Shown piece by piece: positions 3,192 to 61,315 of a stretch of DNA of 64,000 nucleotides. The number at the start of each line of letters is the position of its first letter. Positions within the stretch are counted from its first letter, which is position 1. The notes beneath the pieces are model-generated. The model was not told the DNA's origin. It worked only from the letters and a program-made list of their open reading frames with translations, and made no database searches. The position numbers and the translations under genes were made by a program. Origin of the DNA: Phycisphaerae bacterium. GTDB lineage: Bacteria > Planctomycetota > Phycisphaerae > UBA1845 > Fen-1342. The stretch is from positions 608,001-672,000 of the forward strand of contig CAXXWX010000026.1 of the NCBI GenBank assembly GCA_963675745.2. The letters run 5' to 3'.

Positions 3192-5078
3192 ATCGGGTAG
3201 CCGGGGAGGTTGCCCTGCCCCGGCTCCCACACCACCGTACGTACGGTTCCGTATACGGCGGTTCACGAGCAACCCGCGAGTCGCCGATGCTCGTCCATCA
3301 GGCTGATCAGCCCGAGTCCGCGCAGTTCGGAGGTCGGGACGGCGTGGTTCATGTGACGGGCCCCGGCGTTCCACCAGGGACCACGCCCATTCCACGCCGA
3401 CTGCCGGGCCCGCTCATGATCCAGGCCCCGCCGGCACAGCTCCCTGAACTGGGTCCGGTGTCGCTTCCACTGTCGCCACAGGATGCAGCGCAGTTTTCGT
3501 CGTAACCACTGGTCCAGTTGCTCGAAGCTCGCCTTGACCTCCGCGAGCTTGTAGTACGCCACCCAGCCCCGCAGTACGCGGGTCAGGGATTCGGCGACGC
3601 GGGCGAGGTTGCAACCCCGTCCGCGACGCAGCATGGGGCGGAGCTTGGCCTTCAATCGGTGCACCGATTGCGGGGCCACCTTCAGCTTCGGCTGCCGGTG
3701 CATGGTCACGGTGTAGCCCAGGAACTTGCGGGTCCAGGGCCGATCCACCGCGCTCTTCTCACGGTTCACGTGGAGACGCAGTCGCTCCGTCACGAACCGC
3801 TCCACCGAATCGAGCACCCGTTCGCCCGCACGCCTGGACCGCACGTAGATGTTGCAGTCGTCAGCATAGCGAACGAATCGATGGCCGCGCCGTTCCAGCT
3901 CCTTGTCCAGCTCATCGAGCAGGACGTTGCTCAACAGCGGCGATAGCGGCCCACCCTGCGGTGTGCCCTCGGCCCGGGGCGAGACCAGCCCGCCCTCCAT
4001 CATCCCCGCCTGTAGATAGCGGCGGAGGAGGAGTAACACCTTCTTGTCCTTGACCCGGCGCGCCACGCGTGACATGAGCACGTCGTGGTTCACCCGGTCG
4101 AAGAACTTCTCCAGATCCATGTCCACCGTCCAGCGATAACCGGCCGCGATATGCTCGCGGGCACGTTGCACCGCTTGGTGCGTGCTTCGTTCCGGACGGA
4201 AGCCGAAGCTCGCATCCGAGAACGTCGGGTCGAAGATCGGCTGGAGGACCTGGAGTAAGGCTTGCTGGATCAGACGATCCAGCACGGTCGGGATGCCCAG
4301 CGTTCGCATCCCCTTCCCGCCCGGCTTGGGGATTTCCACCTTCCGGACCGGCTGGGGTTGATACGTGCCGTTGAGCAGCGCCTCCCGGATGCGGGACCAG
4401 TGTTCCCGGCAGTACGGCATCAGGTCGTCGACGGCCATGCCATCCACGCCTGCCGCCCCTTTGTTGCGCACTACCCGTTCGTGTGCGCGGATCAGGTTCT
4501 CACGTGACACGACCTGATCGATGAGCATCGGAGCCTCGGCCCCGGTCTGTCCGTGCTGTGCCGTGCGCGCTTGACGCGCGGTTCCGGTACCCTCGGCGAT
4601 GCCGTCGCCTACTCTTCCGGTCCGCTCGGGCTTCCCAGCCCTCTGGCCTGCGTCTCCTTCACGCATCGAACCTCACGACTCCGGTTCGGCTCCTCGTGTT
4701 CGGCCCTTCGCCGCCGTGTCCTGCGGCTACTATGGCCTCGGCTGACTTCTGCCCGTCCCTCACCACGCCTCGCAGCGCTGGTTAGCCTCAACGGCAGACG
4801 GGCAGACCTCCCAGGGTAAGGCGTTTGCCTTTCGCTCCATACACCCGCCGCATCTACGCCGGTTCGGTTCCGGATGGCATTGGGCTTTGCGTCTTTTGGC
4901 CCGCTCGCCCACCGACCGACGCCTCGTATGCGGTTCGTGTTCCTCAGGCCAGAGCTTTGCGTACAGCTTCCTTCAGACCCCGCCTCGCGGCGACGCCCTT
5001 GCTGTTCGGCTAGGGGTTCCTGCCATCAAGGCCCCCAGAGGACTTACACCTCCTAGTCAAACGCCATGCCTAGCACAC
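3192..5078 (-). mobile_element. Group II intron, bacterial class C (IIC), ~1887 nt
   Basis: 5' end GTGTG at 5078 directly after a terminator stem-loop; short domain V GAACCGCCGTATACGGAACCGTACGTACGGTGGTGTG and domain VI ending ...CTACCCGAT at 3192; internal RT ORF lacking an endonuclease domain. Confidence 0.93.
3263..4528 (-). CDS. ltrA: Group II intron reverse transcriptase/maturase (ATG at 4528 preferred; ORF open to 4666)
   Basis: NKGAAGVDG, RTLGIPTVLDR, GTPQGGPLSPLLSN, RYADD and maturase X domain; no HNH domain. Confidence 0.95.
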   Translation of the reverse strand: MLIDQVVSRENLIRAHERVVRNKGAAGVDGMAVDDLMPYCREHWSRIREALLNGTYQPQPVRKVEIPKPGGKGMRTLGIPTVLDRLIQQALLQVLQPIFDPTFSDASFGFRPERSTHQAVQRAREHIAAGYRWTVDMDLEKFFDRVNHDVLMSRVARRVKDKKVLLLLRRYLQAGMMEGGLVSPRAEGTPQGGPLSPLLSNVLLDELDKELERRGHRFVRYADDCNIYVRSRRAGERVLDSVERFVTERLRLHVNREKSAVDRPWTRKFLGYTVTMHRQPKLKVAPQSVHRLKAKLRPMLRRGRGCNLARVAESLTRVLRGWVAYYKLAEVKASFEQLDQWLRRKLRCILWRQWKRHRTQFRELCRRGLDHERARQSAWNGRGPWWNAGARHMNHAVPTSELRGLGLISLMDEHRRLAGCS

Positions 5079-5080
5079 CA

Positions 5081-5116
5081 AAAGCAAACCCCGCCAGGAG
5101 TTCCGGCGGGGTTGCT
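5081..5116 (-). terminator. Intrinsic terminator downstream of tRNA-Asn; target structure of the IIC intron
   Basis: Minus strand AGCAACCCCGCCGG-AACT-CCTGGCGGGGTTTGCTTTT. Confidence 0.8.
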
Positions 5117-5186
5117 GAATCTGTCACTCCCCGACCCCGAAGCGCACTCGATTGCGTCACCTGAGGACGGGTTGTTGAATCGTCAA

Positions 5187-5258
5187 CTCCCCGAGTAGGA
5201 CTCGAACCTACAACCTAGCGGTTAACAGCCGCTCGCTCTACCATTGAGCTATCGGGGA
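5187..5258 (-). tRNA. tRNA-Asn(GTT), CCA not encoded
   Basis: TCCCCGATAGCTCAATGGTAGAGCGAGCGGCTGTTAACCGCTAGGTTGTAGGTTCGAGTCCTACTCGGGGAG folds as a cloverleaf with anticodon GTT. Confidence 0.96.
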
Positions 5259-5368
5259 TTCGGTTGTCTGATGCCGCCCGCGACGATTGGTGTGCTGTCG
5301 CGAGTAGCCACGTAGTTTACGCCAGCCCGCCGGCGAGATCAAGCTCAGCTTTGGCCACGATCAGCGAC

Positions 5369-5433
5369 TCAGTGCCCGGCGCCAAGTGCCTCAGTGCCCG
5401 GTGCTCAGTGCCTCCGGTGCCCGGTGCCGTGCC
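5369..5433. repeat. Degenerate short tandem repeat (CAGTGCC/CGGTGCC-like units)
   Basis: tcagtgcccggcgccaagtgcctcagtgcccggtgctcagtgcctccggtgcccggtgccgtgcc. Confidence 0.55.
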
Positions 5434-5467
5434 ATGGGCTGTCGCGGCGTACGGCCGCCGAGGCACG

Positions 5468-7327
5468 CTACGGCACGCGAAAATCCAGATCACGCAACGC
5501 CCCACCCTGGGTCTCGATCGACACGATACGCGTCCCCGACGGCACCTGGAACAGCAGTCCCACTACCGCGTCCGCACTCGAACTCGTCAACTCCGGCCCG
5601 CGAATCTCCTTCCAATCGAGAGCGCCACGAAACGCCGTGTATTCCGGCGTGCCCGGCAGCCCGGAGTAATAGAGCTCGATGAACTCCTCGCCGGAACGCT
5701 TCACGATCCCGTAATAGCCGATCAGCCGATATCGCTGGCTGTTATTCTCGGCCACGGCCTCATAGCTGTTCAAGGTGCGGCCGGCGAAGTTGAATACCTG
5801 GCCGAGCGTTGATCGCGCCTGATAGGGCTTGAAACGGATTTGCAGCAGCTTGAGATCGTCCGGGACTTCGAAGGAATCGATGGAAGCGGTGCCGGCGGCG
5901 GCCCGCAGGTCGGACACGCGGCCGCTGATGCGCCCATAGGCCAGGCTGCGTCCACTTGTGTCAAAGTCGCCGCGCGCGGCCGCCTGCGCCACGTGAAACG
6001 GCAGCTCGTCCGAGACGCCGGTGCCTTCCTCCTGCGCATGGTCCATGAACGAAGACGCGCCCTGCCTGTGCCCGCGGGTGAAATCGGGGCGTGGGCCACC
6101 GCCGCCGGGCGGGCGCGGTCGCGCCGGAGCGGCGGTATCTTCGGTGGCGTCCGCGGCGATCTCGGCGGGCGTCTCGGCCTTCTTGGAGGCGGTCAATTCG
6201 GCCCGTGCATGACGACGATACTCAATGAACCACGGCTTGAAGCCGTTGGGCACCTCAAAATACACGGTCAGCTTGCTGTTTGAGCTTTTCAAAAAGCTGT
6301 TATCAAGGTCCACGGCGCGGAGCGGGCTCGTGAGGTTTTCGCTCTCGATCTGGCCAAGTATGCGTGGTGTGTAGTGGGCCGGATCGCCGTTGGCCTTGGT
6401 GCCGACCAGCCGGATCATCGATGGGCGGAAACGGTGGTCCGCGGCGCGTTCTTCCATCCGATCAGCCGACTTGTTGTTCAAGCCCAACTCGGCCCCAAGC
6501 CAGTTCATGCCCGCGGATGGCGGAAACGCCTTTTCCGGGTCATAGCCCAGCCGCGCGTGTGTCTCAAAGGTCGGCACCGTCGTTCGATACTGCGCACGCA
6601 GCGGACCGCTGACCTCCCACCAGCTCTCAATAACCAGCCCGCTTTCGAAACCATCACCGCTCTCATCTCGGTAAGGTGATGTTGTTGACTCGGGCTGCAC
6701 CGTGTTTCCCGACCAGGAGACCCACTCCGTGAAATCAGGGTAAACACTGGCAAATGTGCGGTCCGGATGCGCCTCATCGGCGACATTGCCGCCTTTCAAA
6801 CTGCCGGCGCTGAGAATCTTGAACAACCCTGCGGCGAAGTCGTCCGGCCTCAGGAAGAAACCCACGTTGTTGCGGTGGAACTGGACGAATCCCTCGCGAT
6901 CCACTTTGCCACGGCTATCGCGCTCAAAGCGTGAGAACATCATGACGCTGCCGCCAAACGGCAGCATCTGAAAGCCGATCATCAGCACGCCGACGGCGAT
7001 CTGCGCGTTGATGAAGCCCAGCAGGCCCCCGCCGACCCAATCCGCATACATTGGCAGGCGCACGTTCCCGCGGATAAACGTGTCGGCCGCGTAACGCATC
7101 ACACCCAGCGAAACGACAAAGAGCCCGACAAAACAACACGGCTCCGAGTACGCCGGGTGGATCCCCTGGCCGGTCACAAAGTCGTTAAGTACCGCGAAGA
7201 AGCCAAACGTGACCGCCACAGCCATGATGCTGCAGAACGTGTTGATGATAGCGCTGAACAAGCCGAACATCGACTGGTAGAACGTAATCGCCAGTACGAG
7301 GCACAGCGCTAGAATGCTCAAGACCAT
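5468..7327 (-). CDS. CvpA-family membrane protein with a large soluble C-terminal extension
   Basis: N-terminal 4-TM region with G-LFSAII and D-x-GGGLLGF pattern of the CvpA family; ~480 aa soluble tail of unknown function. Confidence 0.6.
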   Translation of the reverse strand: MVLSILALCLVLAITFYQSMFGLFSAIINTFCSIMAVAVTFGFFAVLNDFVTGQGIHPAYSEPCCFVGLFVVSLGVMRYAADTFIRGNVRLPMYADWVGGGLLGFINAQIAVGVLMIGFQMLPFGGSVMMFSRFERDSRGKVDREGFVQFHRNNVGFFLRPDDFAAGLFKILSAGSLKGGNVADEAHPDRTFASVYPDFTEWVSWSGNTVQPESTTSPYRDESGDGFESGLVIESWWEVSGPLRAQYRTTVPTFETHARLGYDPEKAFPPSAGMNWLGAELGLNNKSADRMEERAADHRFRPSMIRLVGTKANGDPAHYTPRILGQIESENLTSPLRAVDLDNSFLKSSNSKLTVYFEVPNGFKPWFIEYRRHARAELTASKKAETPAEIAADATEDTAAPARPRPPGGGGPRPDFTRGHRQGASSFMDHAQEEGTGVSDELPFHVAQAAARGDFDTSGRSLAYGRISGRVSDLRAAAGTASIDSFEVPDDLKLLQIRFKPYQARSTLGQVFNFAGRTLNSYEAVAENNSQRYRLIGYYGIVKRSGEEFIELYYSGLPGTPEYTAFRGALDWKEIRGPELTSSSADAVVGLLFQVPSGTRIVSIETQGGALRDLDFRVP

Positions 7328-55425: not shown

Positions 55426-55545
55426 ATGCGCCTCAAGCCATTCTGTGCGGCAGCGAGAGACACGGCTCACAGAGCCGTGGCACACGTCGGGTCTCTGATA
55501 GCCGGGCCGGCGTGTCTCGTTGCTCGACATACCGTACGCCTACCC

Positions 55546-57933: not shown

Positions 57934-58215
57934 GATCGAGCCCTCTGGTCTGCTGAATTCGACTGCCCCGCGCGATACGAGGTCGGCGGGCATTGTACGC
58001 TGCGGTGGTCGAATACGCGCGGGCGTGGGCAGCGCCAGTCTCTGGCGTGAACACCCCCACCTGCCCCTTATCGGGCAGGTTCGCTAACCAGTGCGATCGG
58101 CGAAAGCCGCGATCAAGCGGCGTGACTGGATGCTGTTGGAACTTCTTGCTGGAGGGAGTACCCGACTGTCTGCGCGAGCCGTCGAGGCGCCGCCGTGAGC
58201 CCGTTCTGAGAGACG

Positions 58216-59148
58216 CTATTCTCCTGCGCCCCCGCCCCGCCGGAATCGCACGCGGTGGTTTTTCTGATCCAAGGTGACGGCGAAGTCCTTGAGTAAGCGT
58301 GAGCCGATGTTCCCAGCATCATAGGTCAACATCGGACCGAGATCCGCGAAGTTGATGCGGGGCTTATCCCATTCGTGCTTGCCGAGTTTGAGGGTTCCGT
58401 CGAGCATGGCAGAGCGGACTACGGCCTCGCCCTGAGGCGTTCGAGCCTTGCCCACCACCCGTGGCTTGCCCTTCAGGGGCAGCTCTTTCTGAAGCTTGTT
58501 CAACACGGTGACGAGAGCGGGCGAGCCGGTGTCGAGGTGAGCCTTGACGGGCACGCCGGCGGCCGAGAGCGTCACTGTCACACCATAGTCGTGCTTCTCT
58601 TCGCCCGAGTACTCGATCGTCTCGCCATCAGGCGGCGGCAGCGTGCCCGACTCGAGCCGCACGCGCCGCTTGGGGAAATCGAGCGTAAGCAGGCAGTCTT
58701 GGAACAACGGCAACCCCAGAATCCCGACAATCCCGTGGCTGTCCGCCGGCATACACCCGCCGACGTCCGAGCAAATCGCCGGGAACGACGAGAATTTCGC
58801 CTCACCGATCGCCAGCGTGCCAATCTCGACGGTCTCCAGCGTCTCGTCTTCGGTCTGCAACTTGCGCGTGCCGCTTTCGGCGAGCTTCAGGTTTTTGACC
58901 AGTGCGTTATTCAGCACCGCCGGAAAGGTGGTGCCGGTGTCGATGAGCAGCTTGAACGGCCCCTGACCGTTGACCCTGGCCTCGACCACCGGTCGGCCTC
59001 CCCAATCATCCATCGACACGGATACCGTCGGCTTGTGCAGCTCGGTGCGCTGCGGACCGGGCGCGCGCTCCGGCGTCGTCTGCGCCTGCCCGAGCTGTTG
59101 TGAAAACAAGGCCACCAGCAGCGCCACGCACACCTCTCGGATTGACAT
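58216..59148 (-). CDS. Secreted two-domain retropepsin-like aspartyl protease
   Basis: LLIDTGT and AHLDTGS motifs; GILG; GNIG. Confidence 0.8.
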   Translation of the reverse strand: MSIREVCVALLVALFSQQLGQAQTTPERAPGPQRTELHKPTVSVSMDDWGGRPVVEARVNGQGPFKLLIDTGTTFPAVLNNALVKNLKLAESGTRKLQTEDETLETVEIGTLAIGEAKFSSFPAICSDVGGCMPADSHGIVGILGLPLFQDCLLTLDFPKRRVRLESGTLPPPDGETIEYSGEEKHDYGVTVTLSAAGVPVKAHLDTGSPALVTVLNKLQKELPLKGKPRVVGKARTPQGEAVVRSAMLDGTLKLGKHEWDKPRINFADLGPMLTYDAGNIGSRLLKDFAVTLDQKNHRVRFRRGGGAGE

Positions 59149-59207
59149 TACGAACTCCCTCGTCATCAGACGCCAGATGCGCGACGCGTCGTGTCCCCAA
59201 ACCGGCG

Positions 59208-59240: not shown

Positions 59241-59440
59241 GACACGACCTGTACTGACACTAGACGAGTCGAAAGCCGGCTGCCTGTCACGATTCGCGCC
59301 ACAAGATCGGTGGCGGACGGCCGCGTCAATATCGGATCGGCGAACCAGATGCCCGGGACACCGACATTCCGCTGCAAAAACAGCCCTCGCCAACGCCGGC
59401 GCATGAGAAAGGCCTTGATGTGCAGGGGATCGTGATGAAT

Positions 59441-59507
59441 TCGGGCGACTGAGTTTGAGCCTGCAACCTCTGTGTCCAGAATCTCGCGCACGTTGCGTCA
59501 CACCGCG
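59441..59507 (-). pseudogene. Degenerate tRNA-Pro-like pseudogene
   Basis: Minus strand CGCGGTGTGACGCAACGTGCGCGAGATTCTGGACACAGAGGTTGCAGGCTCAAACTCAGTCGCCCGA resembles the tRNA-Pro consensus, but the stems no longer pair. Confidence 0.55.
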
Positions 59508-59694
59508 ATGCTGACCGCGCCAGTCGCGGCTTTGTGCTGCAAGCCAACCGACCATTCCGCCGCACAACGCTCAGTTTTGCGCCTCGCCGCCAAGCCCGTC
59601 CTGGAGTGCATGTTCAAACCGGCCTGGCGCGCAAGCCGCCGCGGCGCGCACGACTCAGCAGAGGCGCCAGATGCTGCAAAAAGCCATATCCACC

Positions 59695-59813
59695 CTGAAA
59701 GGCCTCAGAAAATCTTCCTGACACCTTTTCCTGACACTGAAAGGCCTCAGAAAATCTTCCTGACACCTTTTCCTGACACCTTTTCCTTTTCTGTGTTGAC
59801 ACCTTTTCTGTGT
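59695..59813. repeat. Nested tandem duplications (42-bp, 13-bp, 17-bp) built on TGACACCTTTT; left boundary of the cassette
   Basis: ctgaaaggcctcagaaaatcttcctgacaccttttcctgaca x2; four full TGACACCTTTT copies. Confidence 0.85.
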
Positions 59814-59920
59814 CCCGACCGAGCAGTGGTTTGGCCAGTGCCACCCTCCCCCCTTTGTCTCGTGCTCCTCACAACGAGCCCGCAGCCGTCTATTTACTGA
59901 CAGCTCTGCAGCAACCCACT

Positions 59921-60598
59921 TTACGGCCAAAAGTCACTGCCGTGGTCCGCACGAAAGCTGCTCGCTGCCTCGCCAAAACTGGTGCGTCTACTGCCGAGCC
60001 TGTTGAAGTGTGAATTCGCAGTATCAAACACGCTGAGTAGTTCCGCGCAGGTGTCGCCGGCAAGTTGGACGGCACCGCTCTTGATGACTTGATACCTATC
60101 ATCAAGTAGGTGGAGGTTAAAGGCCCGCTGTTCTCCCACAGCAAGGGCGAACTCCTGAAGATCGCCATCGGAAAAATCGGCAATCGAGCACAGTGTTTCG
60201 TCCTGCTCGCCTGAAACGGGAATTCCCATCACAAAGTACAAGATCGGGTACTGTGGATATGAAAAGCACTTGAATTTGAAATGAACCTCGTGGTGGGATC
60301 TGATATAGTCCTTTTCGCCATCTGATACATTCCCCAACGCGCCGGCCACGTATGCTCCGTGTTTGTCTGCCCAAAAACTGGCGACGGAGAGGCCGAATGA
60401 TCGCACCTGGTCTTGGACGTTGAAGTACACAATGTGATCACCAGGTATTGTCTTATTTAGCGCGTCTAGCGACTTAACACCTCGCCCGGTTACTGCCTTT
60501 TGCCAGATGAGTGGAACTGTGCTTCGATGCCACCTGGCGCCCCGGGATACTATCGGGATGGCGATTTCAGCTTTGAGCCAGTATTCCGTTGACGGCAT
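59921..60598 (-). CDS. Hypothetical protein, visibly lower GC than the flanks (probably horizontally acquired)
   Basis: 225-aa ORF with strong SD GAAGGAGG; many AT-ending codons. Confidence 0.75.
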   Translation of the reverse strand: MPSTEYWLKAEIAIPIVSRGARWHRSTVPLIWQKAVTGRGVKSLDALNKTIPGDHIVYFNVQDQVRSFGLSVASFWADKHGAYVAGALGNVSDGEKDYIRSHHEVHFKFKCFSYPQYPILYFVMGIPVSGEQDETLCSIADFSDGDLQEFALAVGEQRAFNLHLLDDRYQVIKSGAVQLAGDTCAELLSVFDTANSHFNRLGSRRTSFGEAASSFRADHGSDFWP

Positions 60599-60631
60599 GT
60601 CACAAACCTCCTTCTCTCAACGTGGTACGAA

Positions 60632-60659
60632 ACACAGAAAAGCTGTCAGGAAGATTTTT
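60632..60659. repeat. Right inverted site of the cassette
   Basis: acacagaaaagctgtcaggaagattttt; reverse complement matches 59709-59730 at 21/22. Confidence 0.8.
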
Positions 60660-60706
60660 GTGCATGCTCCATCGCCGAAGCACGGCTCACGCAGCCGTGG
60701 CACACT

Positions 60707-60762
60707 GCACACTCCGCGCCGCCGCACGGGCGCACCACCGCACACTCCGCGCCGCCGCACGG
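60707..60762. repeat. 23-bp direct repeat with 33-bp period
   Basis: gcacactccgcgccgccgcacgg at 60707 and 60740. Confidence 0.7.
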
Positions 60763-60994
60763 CTATTGTAACCAGACGCCGGGTCATGCACGATGGTGGC
60801 ATGGCGGCGGCTGGCCGCGGAGGTAGGCCTGGGCGGTGTGTGTTTTGGGCAGACCGGGAATCGTGGTTTTCGGGTGTGGACAGCGTCGCTGGAGCTGGGG
60901 TGGGTCATGGTCCGCGCGGAATCAGGCGATTTGCCGCACTGCCCGGCGTCGGGCAGGTTCGCTAATCCGTGCGATCGGCAGGATTTACAACAAG

Positions 60995-61067
<73 letters not shown>

Positions 61068-61315
61068 TTTGACTGCTCTATTATAGATTCGCACAGCCCG
61101 CACGCAACCGCGATGCTCCAGGGCATTCTGCGGCAGAGCGCTGCGTCCAACCCCCGGCTCGGATGTGTTTGGCGGGAGAAACCGCTCAGAGCGACGGCCT
61201 ACTCTGGGGCGACCGCCACATGCAGGCTGCGCACAAATGCGGTGCTCTCGCCCAGAAGCGCGGCGTTAAGCGGAACGCCGGCCGTGGCGCCCGCCGCGGA
61301 TAGCACAAGTTTGCG

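Follow-up and report, generated by a model that had tools for sequence, protein, structure and literature searches.

TIRtron-type ends facing inward around a foreign-looking gene in a Phycisphaerae genome, and their possible part in gene exchange

The closest described relatives of the DNA ends considered here are the TIRtron/TIRYT elements of Di Nocera, De Gregorio and Rocco (2013, PMC3733652), the TnpA-Y1 subclass 2.1 enzymes (Quentin et al. 2018, PMC6006769) and group 1 of the RAYTs (10.1101/119735); here and below, what we say of these sources refers to the sections consulted. A TIRtron holds a Y1/HUH gene of about 230 aa between TIRs, one of which overlaps the 3' end of the gene, and its TIRs also occur as dispersed singles, dimers and groups; all of this is found here too, with a TIR motif one mismatch from GGGGWSAS. 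In the sections consulted, the TIRtron paper only proposes testing of TIRYT (PMC3733652). Among the true RAYTs, group 1 is described as most closely resembling an IS (10.1101/119735), and subclass 2.1 is given as the largest group of RAYT-like enzymes, found in 14.9% of species and without known function (PMC6006769); RAYT function in general is likewise stated as unknown in the portion consulted of 10.1101/2024.07.17.603846. HUH chemistry involves single-strand cleavage via a phosphotyrosine, followed by strand transfer (PMC6006769). REPINs, as far as the relevant sections go, are replicating doublets (Bertels and Rainey 2011, PMC3116915). The nearest functional precedent comes from picocyanobacteria, where TnpA-REP enzymes of subclass 2.1 face prochlorosin genes; that study describes no inverted repeats and one gene family, and later states no strong evidence for or against causality (10.1101/2020.03.09.984088).

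Here we analyse the window, a stretch of 64,000 nucleotides from a Phycisphaerae genome (G000), in which a low-GC gene near a tRNA-Ala gene lies between two TIR ends that face it (Table 1). An initial annotation had described the locus as a foreign single-gene cassette between inverted sites. The inverted 22-nt sites are present (left copies at 59709-59730 and 59751-59772, right copy at 60637-60658) and are 95% complementary, and the likeness it saw between the right site and the last left core does run into the tail, since 59797-59813 is complementary to 60632-60648 along 17 nt. The sequence TCCTGACASCTTTT has 4 matches in the window and none in 100 shuffles. The tRNA-Ala that it placed beside the cassette and the gene's own Shine-Dalgarno sequence were both found. 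As it had also read, no transposase or integrase was recognised: Y1_Tnp and Phage_integrase, the two families searched, gave no match inside the window. The REP hairpin, the REP remnant and the degenerate core of Table 1 were absent from that annotation.

Table 1. Features of the locus, in window coordinates.
Feature	Position	Strand	Basis or remark
Left neighbour, aspartyl-protease-domain gene, outside the ends	58216..59166	-	context
Tandem duplication, 42 bp, with two full left TIRs	59692..59775	+	repeat comparison
Tandem repeats of the outer TIR part, short, at periods 13 and 23	59770..59813	+	last 17-nt unit matches right end
Remnant of REP hairpin family, just inside left end	59821..59844	.	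REP family search
Degenerate inward core with rare G variant as in right site	59897..59905	+	core comparison
Cargo ORF, 225 aa	59921..60598	-	ORF call, AT-rich, small family
Shine-Dalgarno AGGAGG	60607..60612	-	sequence
Right TIR with 6-nt tail, directed into gene	60632..60658	-	repeat comparison
Spacer and REP hairpin (60681-60705), forming REP-TIR hybrid doublet	60659..60705	-	REP family search
Non-coding stretch reaching into tRNA 3' end	60827..61024	.	sequence comparison
tRNA-Ala(CGC)	60994..61067	-	ends 336 bp from right site

Judged by sequence, the window sites are almost certainly outer TIRs of a TIRtron/TIRYT element, whose enzyme would be an HUH/Y1 protein like those of TnpA-Y1 subclass 2.1. 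The same genome carries an intact gene for a 229-aa Y1 transposase (G000:C24:43676-44365) with outward copies of the window site on both sides, and its stop codon falls within a TIR. A profile of 82 sites from other genomes gave 27 matches in G000 (3 in a reversed control), which group as 13 single-orientation clusters, a collapsed doublet on contig C4 and the outward pair on C24. A GTDB scan returned at least 125 TIR loci, and all but one of the 80 with titles were from Planctomycetota. Among these loci were at least 6 distinct full-length Y1 homologs (66-77% identity) with outward TIRs, including some from other Phycisphaerae; others among the matches listed had lost internal parts or were short doublets, facing outward, whose spacers vary. 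Across 40 relatives, which are kin and hence non-independent, a Y1 homolog was present in 6/6 with at least 5 sites, 3/8 with 1-4 and 3/26 with none. The expectation that the sites lie beside one transposase family was thus borne out. That they serve a trans-acting enzyme, either Xer-like or Y1/HUH, held for the second option, given the C24 gene and the same sites flanking it, and found no support for the first, given the dyad test and the Y1 linkage.

The C24 protein scored above the Pfam cut-off for Y1_Tnp; NF047646 gave an E-value of 4e-17 but stayed below its cut-off. It has the HUH motif and the class-2 context of the catalytic Tyr (Y---NP), with H61/H63, Y123 and N127 invariant across 17 Y1 homologs and the residue after N127 either P or A; it was placed in subclass 2.1 by comparing its motifs and its length with Table 1 of PMC6006769. 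The best fold match of its structural model was TnpA-REP (4ER8, E 1.4e-6), and no match to TIRYT was found among PDB sequences. The C-terminus has about 85 extra residues, modelled as short helices with low confidence past residue 207, and no Pfam HTH domain matched at E 0.01.

The TIR consensus GGGG[AT][CG]A[CG] (GGGGWSAS) is matched at 7/8 positions by the window's GGTGTCAG, with one mismatch, and its exact variant GGGGTCAG is present in doublets of genome G015. The initial annotation had suggested a system undescribed as a whole; the TIR matches a described class, an outcome that it had itself listed as counting against its proposal, and Figure 9 or the supplements of PMC3733652, where TIR sequences are listed, may already give the exact TIR. 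Singles, dimers and groups are dispersed within the same genome, and a single TIR is not self-complementary, i.e. it is no palindromic REP hairpin arm. In G015, near-identical 71-bp TIR doublets are dispersed, and recurring spacers are seen in other genomes. We also observed that in one genome the doublet length is nearly fixed (113-115 bp) and the spacers are very diverse (L065, L102, L109, L112, L118-L120 and others). At L437:2657-4050 an outward TIR pair surrounds a gene for a 449-aa non-transposase protein, i.e. cargo in the ordinary transposon geometry, and the TIR core occurs at 15 loci on viral contigs (L421-L435), several of them from related contigs. A further Y1 gene of similar type is present in G000 in two nearly identical copies (G000:C28:1757-2095, L005; C15:67159-67497, L006), with remnants near C4:110788-111134 and C5:1397-1617 and related repeats scattered.

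A separate repeat family, REP, has 82 oriented hits at dozens of loci in G000. It is REPIN-like, with hairpin doublets and variable spacers of about 20 bp; its window copies lie at 55461-55479 and 60681-60705. REP half-copies are fused to TIRs at C5, C6, C17, C19 and in the window. Outside G000, this hybrid pattern matched 35 loci, of which one had a TIR-like profile match and none was a true hybrid.

The left end of the window locus is a collapsed TIR doublet: each TIR copy is preceded by a decayed opposite arm, giving an imperfect hairpin (dyad 8/11) with a weak fold of -4.2 kcal/mol. The degenerate core further in is possibly an older left end; it would be expected 3e-4 times in 110 bp, a figure calculated for a match noticed after the fact. 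At the right end, the REP hairpin lies 22 bp outside the site and belongs to a different repeat family from the TIR. A Xer/pdif site (28 bp, two 11-bp arms, 6-bp spacer) was tried as a description of the sites and rejected on the dyad test. A 31-bp direct repeat (58071-58101 and 60949-60979, 94%) of the sequence beside the tRNA-Ala 3' end may be an older island boundary that takes in the aspartyl-protease gene. A contig from a public run, which may be the source sample, spans 59750-60978 with zero differences; the 42-bp left duplication is unbridged in the contigs listed. The empty or inverted alleles that the initial annotation had led one to look for did not appear in contigs of 3 runs from one study, nor did a joint skipping the cassette in three contig sets, a negative result that does not establish absence.

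The cargo gene has a GC of 0.53, as the initial annotation had indicated in calling it low, and a GC3 of 0.58 (0.77±0.06 in 2170 long ORFs). The DNA between the ends has a GC of 0.538, and just 0.03% of 6507 genome windows of 800 bp are at or below 0.54. Only 33 bp separate the ATG from the TIR tail and a search of 59300-61200 gave no promoter of the sigma-70 consensus type, so expression probably relies on read-through from the tRNA side. The product is a real protein and not strictly the orphan it was taken for: there are 8 usable homologs with 19-64% identity and a common C-terminal motif, some with N-terminal zinc ribbons (P0005, a repeat-driven match, was left out of the family alignment). 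No homolog was found in 60 relatives, in 400 genomes of the phylum searched with a profile, or in pattern scans of metagenome and genome contigs. The predicted alpha/beta structure is confident (pLDDT 89, pTM 0.87). Foldseek, which had been recommended for it, gave no match at E 0.001, and from the best VIA-align result (Z 4.0, rmsd 4.9, 99 aligned) neither kinship nor a new fold follows. Pfam, NCBIfam and PADLOC gave no match and the Atlas no usable one. By analogy with genes enclosed by other pairs, an accessory role in conflict or immunity may be put forward as a rather doubtful candidate.

The T-run tips of the TIRs point away from the transposase in the C24 TIRtron and into the gene in the window. 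As this polarity is opposite, the window locus is not a transposon in which cargo replaced the transposase. It is also not alone: 8 of the 13 lone ends in G000 make 4 inward pairs (on C6, C15, C17 and in the window), 0.7-2.0 kb apart, while 5 are unpaired. Uniform random placement, with hot spots not modelled, predicts 0.016 such pairs and never gave 4 in 200,000 trials; the recurrence of the sites as inverted pairs, anticipated from the single locus, was thus confirmed. GC outliers are enclosed by two of the four pairs and native-GC DNA by the other two. Inside the C17 pair is a lipoprotein-like gene that is rare and whose GC of 0.57 falls in the lowest 1.1% of windows, and inside the C15 pair a split member of a gene family whose other copies cluster on C26. 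The C6 pair holds a native-GC rhomboid gene and a 291-bp duplicate (97%) of the 3' end of its left neighbour, which adjoins the right TIR tip (G000:C6:169119-169409 / 171167-171457, L224). This duplicate is the end of a PEP-CTERM gene, broken inside a terminator-like arm exactly at the TIR tip. Homologs of the C6 and C17 cargo genes had no TIR within about 1.5 kb at 28/28 loci. Matching tails were found in the window pair only; those of C6, C15 and C17 differ. The TIR-less homolog loci, the two native-GC contents and the differing tails count against exchange at the ends.

The window and C17 share a right end, a REP and about 200 bp of tRNA-linked flank (about 400 bp in total). The hybrid doublets are 90% identical across 68 bp, and the non-coding stretch next to the tRNA is 68% identical to the C17 flank and shares 76% identity across 153 bp with a copy on C10 that lacks a TIR. 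Similarity between the two loci ends at the TIR tip, and the genes beyond differ. Beside the C17 pair lies a tRNA 3'-end remnant (G000:C17:101892-101946, L226) resembling the tRNA-Val(CAC) of C15; the remnant, next to a NucS/YhcG-like nuclease gene, is likely an att site.

Inward pairs occur well beyond this genome. A scan for tandem-duplicated ends returned at least 121 loci, mostly from Planctomycetota, with Alphaproteobacteria, Nitrospirota and others also represented, and an inward partner lay within 3.4 kb in 17 of the 77 loci analysed (among the matches listed). We compared GC inside and outside 54 inward pairs, excluding pairs with less than 1.5 kb of flank and cutting 60 bp from each end; four of these pairs are from G000 and some others share a genome. 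GC was lower than in the flanks for 38, by at least 5 points for 18, and higher by 5 for one (random segments, 9% and 6%). Among 25 pairs from blind scans, 20 were lower, 10 of them by at least 5 points, and one higher by 5. The link of site pairs with low-GC DNA therefore extends to many genomes. Without trimming, the effect was present in 18/41 pairs with at least one end other than a short doublet and in 2/13 between two doublets, the latter mostly enclosing genes of native GC. Eight of 16 enclosed proteins scanned had a Pfam match, including Imm11, SUKH-3, DUF6978/DUF1828 (PDC-M24-like), FkbM and acyltransferase 3, and eight had none. Some brackets are tight, with the start codon tens of bases from a tip or the reading frame entering the TIR. 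For the L322 cargo, 400 genomes yielded a single homolog (25% identity), which lacked a convincing TIR. At L451, a 759-bp tandem duplication (1895-2652 / 4777-5535, 98%) covers a gene plus pieces of transposase and lies beside TIRs.

One region is present twice in G210, and its two copies contain unrelated DNA between the same two inward ends; both are close to the ends of contigs in a MAG and perhaps represent strain alleles. Their flanks are 98.6% (1749 bp) and 99.3% (151 bp) identical, and they diverge 13 and 16 nt from TGAC. The swapped contents begin mid-gene, in apparent IS remnants, which indicates that joining is not gene-aware. G210 and its congener G258 also have inward TIRs at the same site (flank 89% identical) after a polymerase gene, which we take to be dnaE2, and enclose different AT-rich genes: a PDC-M24-like gene pair in one case versus an orphan of GC 0.46 in the other. 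Their common right segment starts at a tip, and the left ends may have arisen independently. In 4 other congeners the site has other genes and no TIR directly there, with one TIR-like copy about 3.8 kb on. With a divergence of 10-28% among congeners, one event is indistinguishable from several in series. For the Rhodopirellula pair L436, a search for an empty site found only distant left flanks. What changes in these comparisons is the content between ends that stay; they do not show the proposed transport of a cassette with its ends to a new site. No cargo with its ends was found at two different sites when 24 segments were compared against the collected loci.

The repeats themselves carry a putative footprint of the reaction. 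Among 352 full sites there were 76 downstream core copies (a few double-counted or spurious), 33 of them with a period of 16-19, and these copies mostly begin 0-2 nt before TGAC. In 105 doublets the two arms agree past the core for 3.36 nt, compared to 1.81±0.11 nt in shuffled pairs, up to position 8 past CCTTT; for G015 alone the values are 5.29 and 3.00±0.28. Core-copy periods and doublet-arm agreement define the same unit of 17-18 nt, and the G210 swap breakpoints fall inside it. From the tandem duplications of 16-19 nt near TGAC, cut sites can be predicted. Direct target-site duplication at doublets was weak at best (3.29 versus 3.14±0.08), and tail matching of inward pairs (2.06 versus 1.09±0.26) is not relied on because the shuffle mixes genomes.

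These observations suggest a model, in which cuts at the unit edges and the joining of tips to new DNA are inferred from established HUH chemistry. The C24 TIRtron enzyme would be supplied in trans to the window ends, recognise the TIR, and cut and rejoin single-stranded DNA at the edges of the 17-18 nt unit, which would start at TGAC or 1-3 nt before it and end 7-8 nt beyond CCTTT. Rejoining and repair synthesis would produce tandem unit copies and two doublet arms matching along the same length. Ends would normally move as outward doublets, in a REPIN-like manner; if two ends are directed at one another, new DNA could be joined to the outer tip of each, leaving the ends in place and the intervening DNA gained or replaced. 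The window would then be a landing pad, with an AT-rich, apparently promoterless gene joined at two ends beside tRNA-Ala. On balance, the evidence leans towards the window ends being the junctions by which the cargo gene entered. We suggest more tentatively that TIRYT and inward ends may together form an HUH-based system for capturing and exchanging genes that is widespread in Planctomycetota and in environmental bacteria of other groups. On this wider reading, which we regard as possible rather than probable, fixed chromosomal end pairs would take up or replace foreign genes as a functional counterpart of integrons. Their cargo would comprise immunity proteins, defence candidates and orphans, and the cuts would bound the 17-18 nt unit; both points we hold just as tentatively.

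Because many pairs bracket native genes, a different history has to be weighed seriously, in which the foreign gene reached the tRNA-Ala hot spot by other means and miniature TIR or REP-TIR elements inserted later on each side. Such DNA would tolerate or attract elements, and pairs would mark foreign DNA without moving it. We consider this conceivable, with some doubt. Ends are mobile by themselves: REP-TIR hybrids of one subtype, 88-89% alike, occur in unrelated places, which implies that single ends move on their own, and in the first locus set doublets outnumbered single ends by 98 to 52. Native genes lie between the doublet pairs of G015 and G211, and by eye the two arms of each G015 doublet seem to correspond with one another and not with those on the far side of the gene. 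The 5 unpaired lone ends of G000 are also as expected from this history, as is variation among relatives without TIRs. On the 3' side of tRNA-Ala, G001, G003 and G006 have other genes and no TIR, and at the G209 site 8 congeners have varied genes, again with no TIR, so that hot spots exist without TIR ends. This second hot spot (L503-L510) follows what is presumably an ABC-transporter-like gene and has contents that we take to be toxin-antitoxin-like. Later insertion does not, however, predict that all four close pairs in G000 face inward, nor the tight brackets, nor the breaks of homology at TIR tips on both sides of the swapped DNA in G210.

It is improbable, to our mind, that element, gene and element instead move together as a composite transposon by their outermost ends, whether TIR arms or REP arms (the latter served by another Y1 enzyme), the outer arms in the window having decayed. 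Several loci have the appropriate form. In G211 a whole doublet-gene-doublet unit, preceded by a gene that we take to be mutS-like, is replaced by 100-163 bp without TIR in 3/3 congeners (72-86% identity), so that an empty site exists for this unit; this absence also speaks for gene entry at the ends. REP arms lie outside the two TIRs of the C17 pair, the elements at the two ends of L306 and of L308 are near-identical, and the left end of the window keeps a decayed outer arm. However, no unit was seen at two sites, none of the 6 Y1 genes in G000 is REP-flanked (one has a REP copy about 1.1 kb off), the G210 swaps leave the outer flanks fixed, and the window ends have a polarity opposite to that of the C24 ends. 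That a tyrosine recombinase, of Xer type or from an integron, uses the sites as dif- or att-like targets is very improbable: the genome does have 12 tyrosine-recombinase matches and single, apparently promoterless genes resemble integron cassettes, but the right site lacks an 11-bp dyad around a 6-8 bp spacer (best 7/11), the 8/11 dyad of the left site is a decayed TIR arm, attC (RYYYAAC...GTTRRRY, as a simple pattern) is absent from 59691-60660, and the motif flanks Y1 genes in many genomes.

These loci bring together the cognate enzyme, a short substrate with predictions of where it is cut, and comparisons in nature of states before and after, which makes the question directly testable. If these ends do take up foreign genes, they represent a route of horizontal acquisition with chemistry unlike that of integrons, and inward pairs would offer an easy way of finding new genes for immunity and defence as well as new orphans. 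If they do not, the window contains decayed ends of a known repeat class beside a foreign gene.

The repeat class is thus already known, and it is the inside-out use of its ends around genes that seems undescribed; we found no account of TIR-bounded gene exchange in the literature searched, which was mostly outside subscription journals. Compared to the accounts of TIRtrons, subclass 2.1 and group 1 RAYTs in the sections consulted, the loci here differ in having ends paired inward about foreign genes, contents swapped at these ends, end duplications of 16-19 nt and REP-TIR hybrids, and, in comparison with the TIRtron enzymes as described there, in having no Pfam HTH domain detected. With the REPIN-RAYT system (PMC3116915; E. 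coli TnpA-REP, PDB 4ER8), again from partial sources, they share a Y1 enzyme that acts in trans, small inverted doublets whose spacers are variable yet constant in length, clusters in tandem with flanking DNA included, and doublets as the replicating unit. The arm here is a non-palindromic TIR, whereas the REPIN arm is a hairpin with a GTAG foot, and the sections of PMC3116915 consulted give no account of REPINs that bracket exchanged genes, as the ends here may do. The prochlorosin case shares the enzyme subclass, proposed there to mobilise or diversify host genes, and has full and truncated transposases beside variable genes; in contrast to it, recognition ends, breakpoints and diverse cargo are visible here. 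In integron cassettes and Xer/pdif modules, an enzyme acting in trans exchanges genes one by one at short sites, and many of these genes seem to have no promoter. The loci described here would resemble them in this outcome, but the chemistry predicted from the enzyme sequence is of the HUH type, there is no attC or dif anatomy, no ordered arrays are seen, and the joins are not gene-precise.
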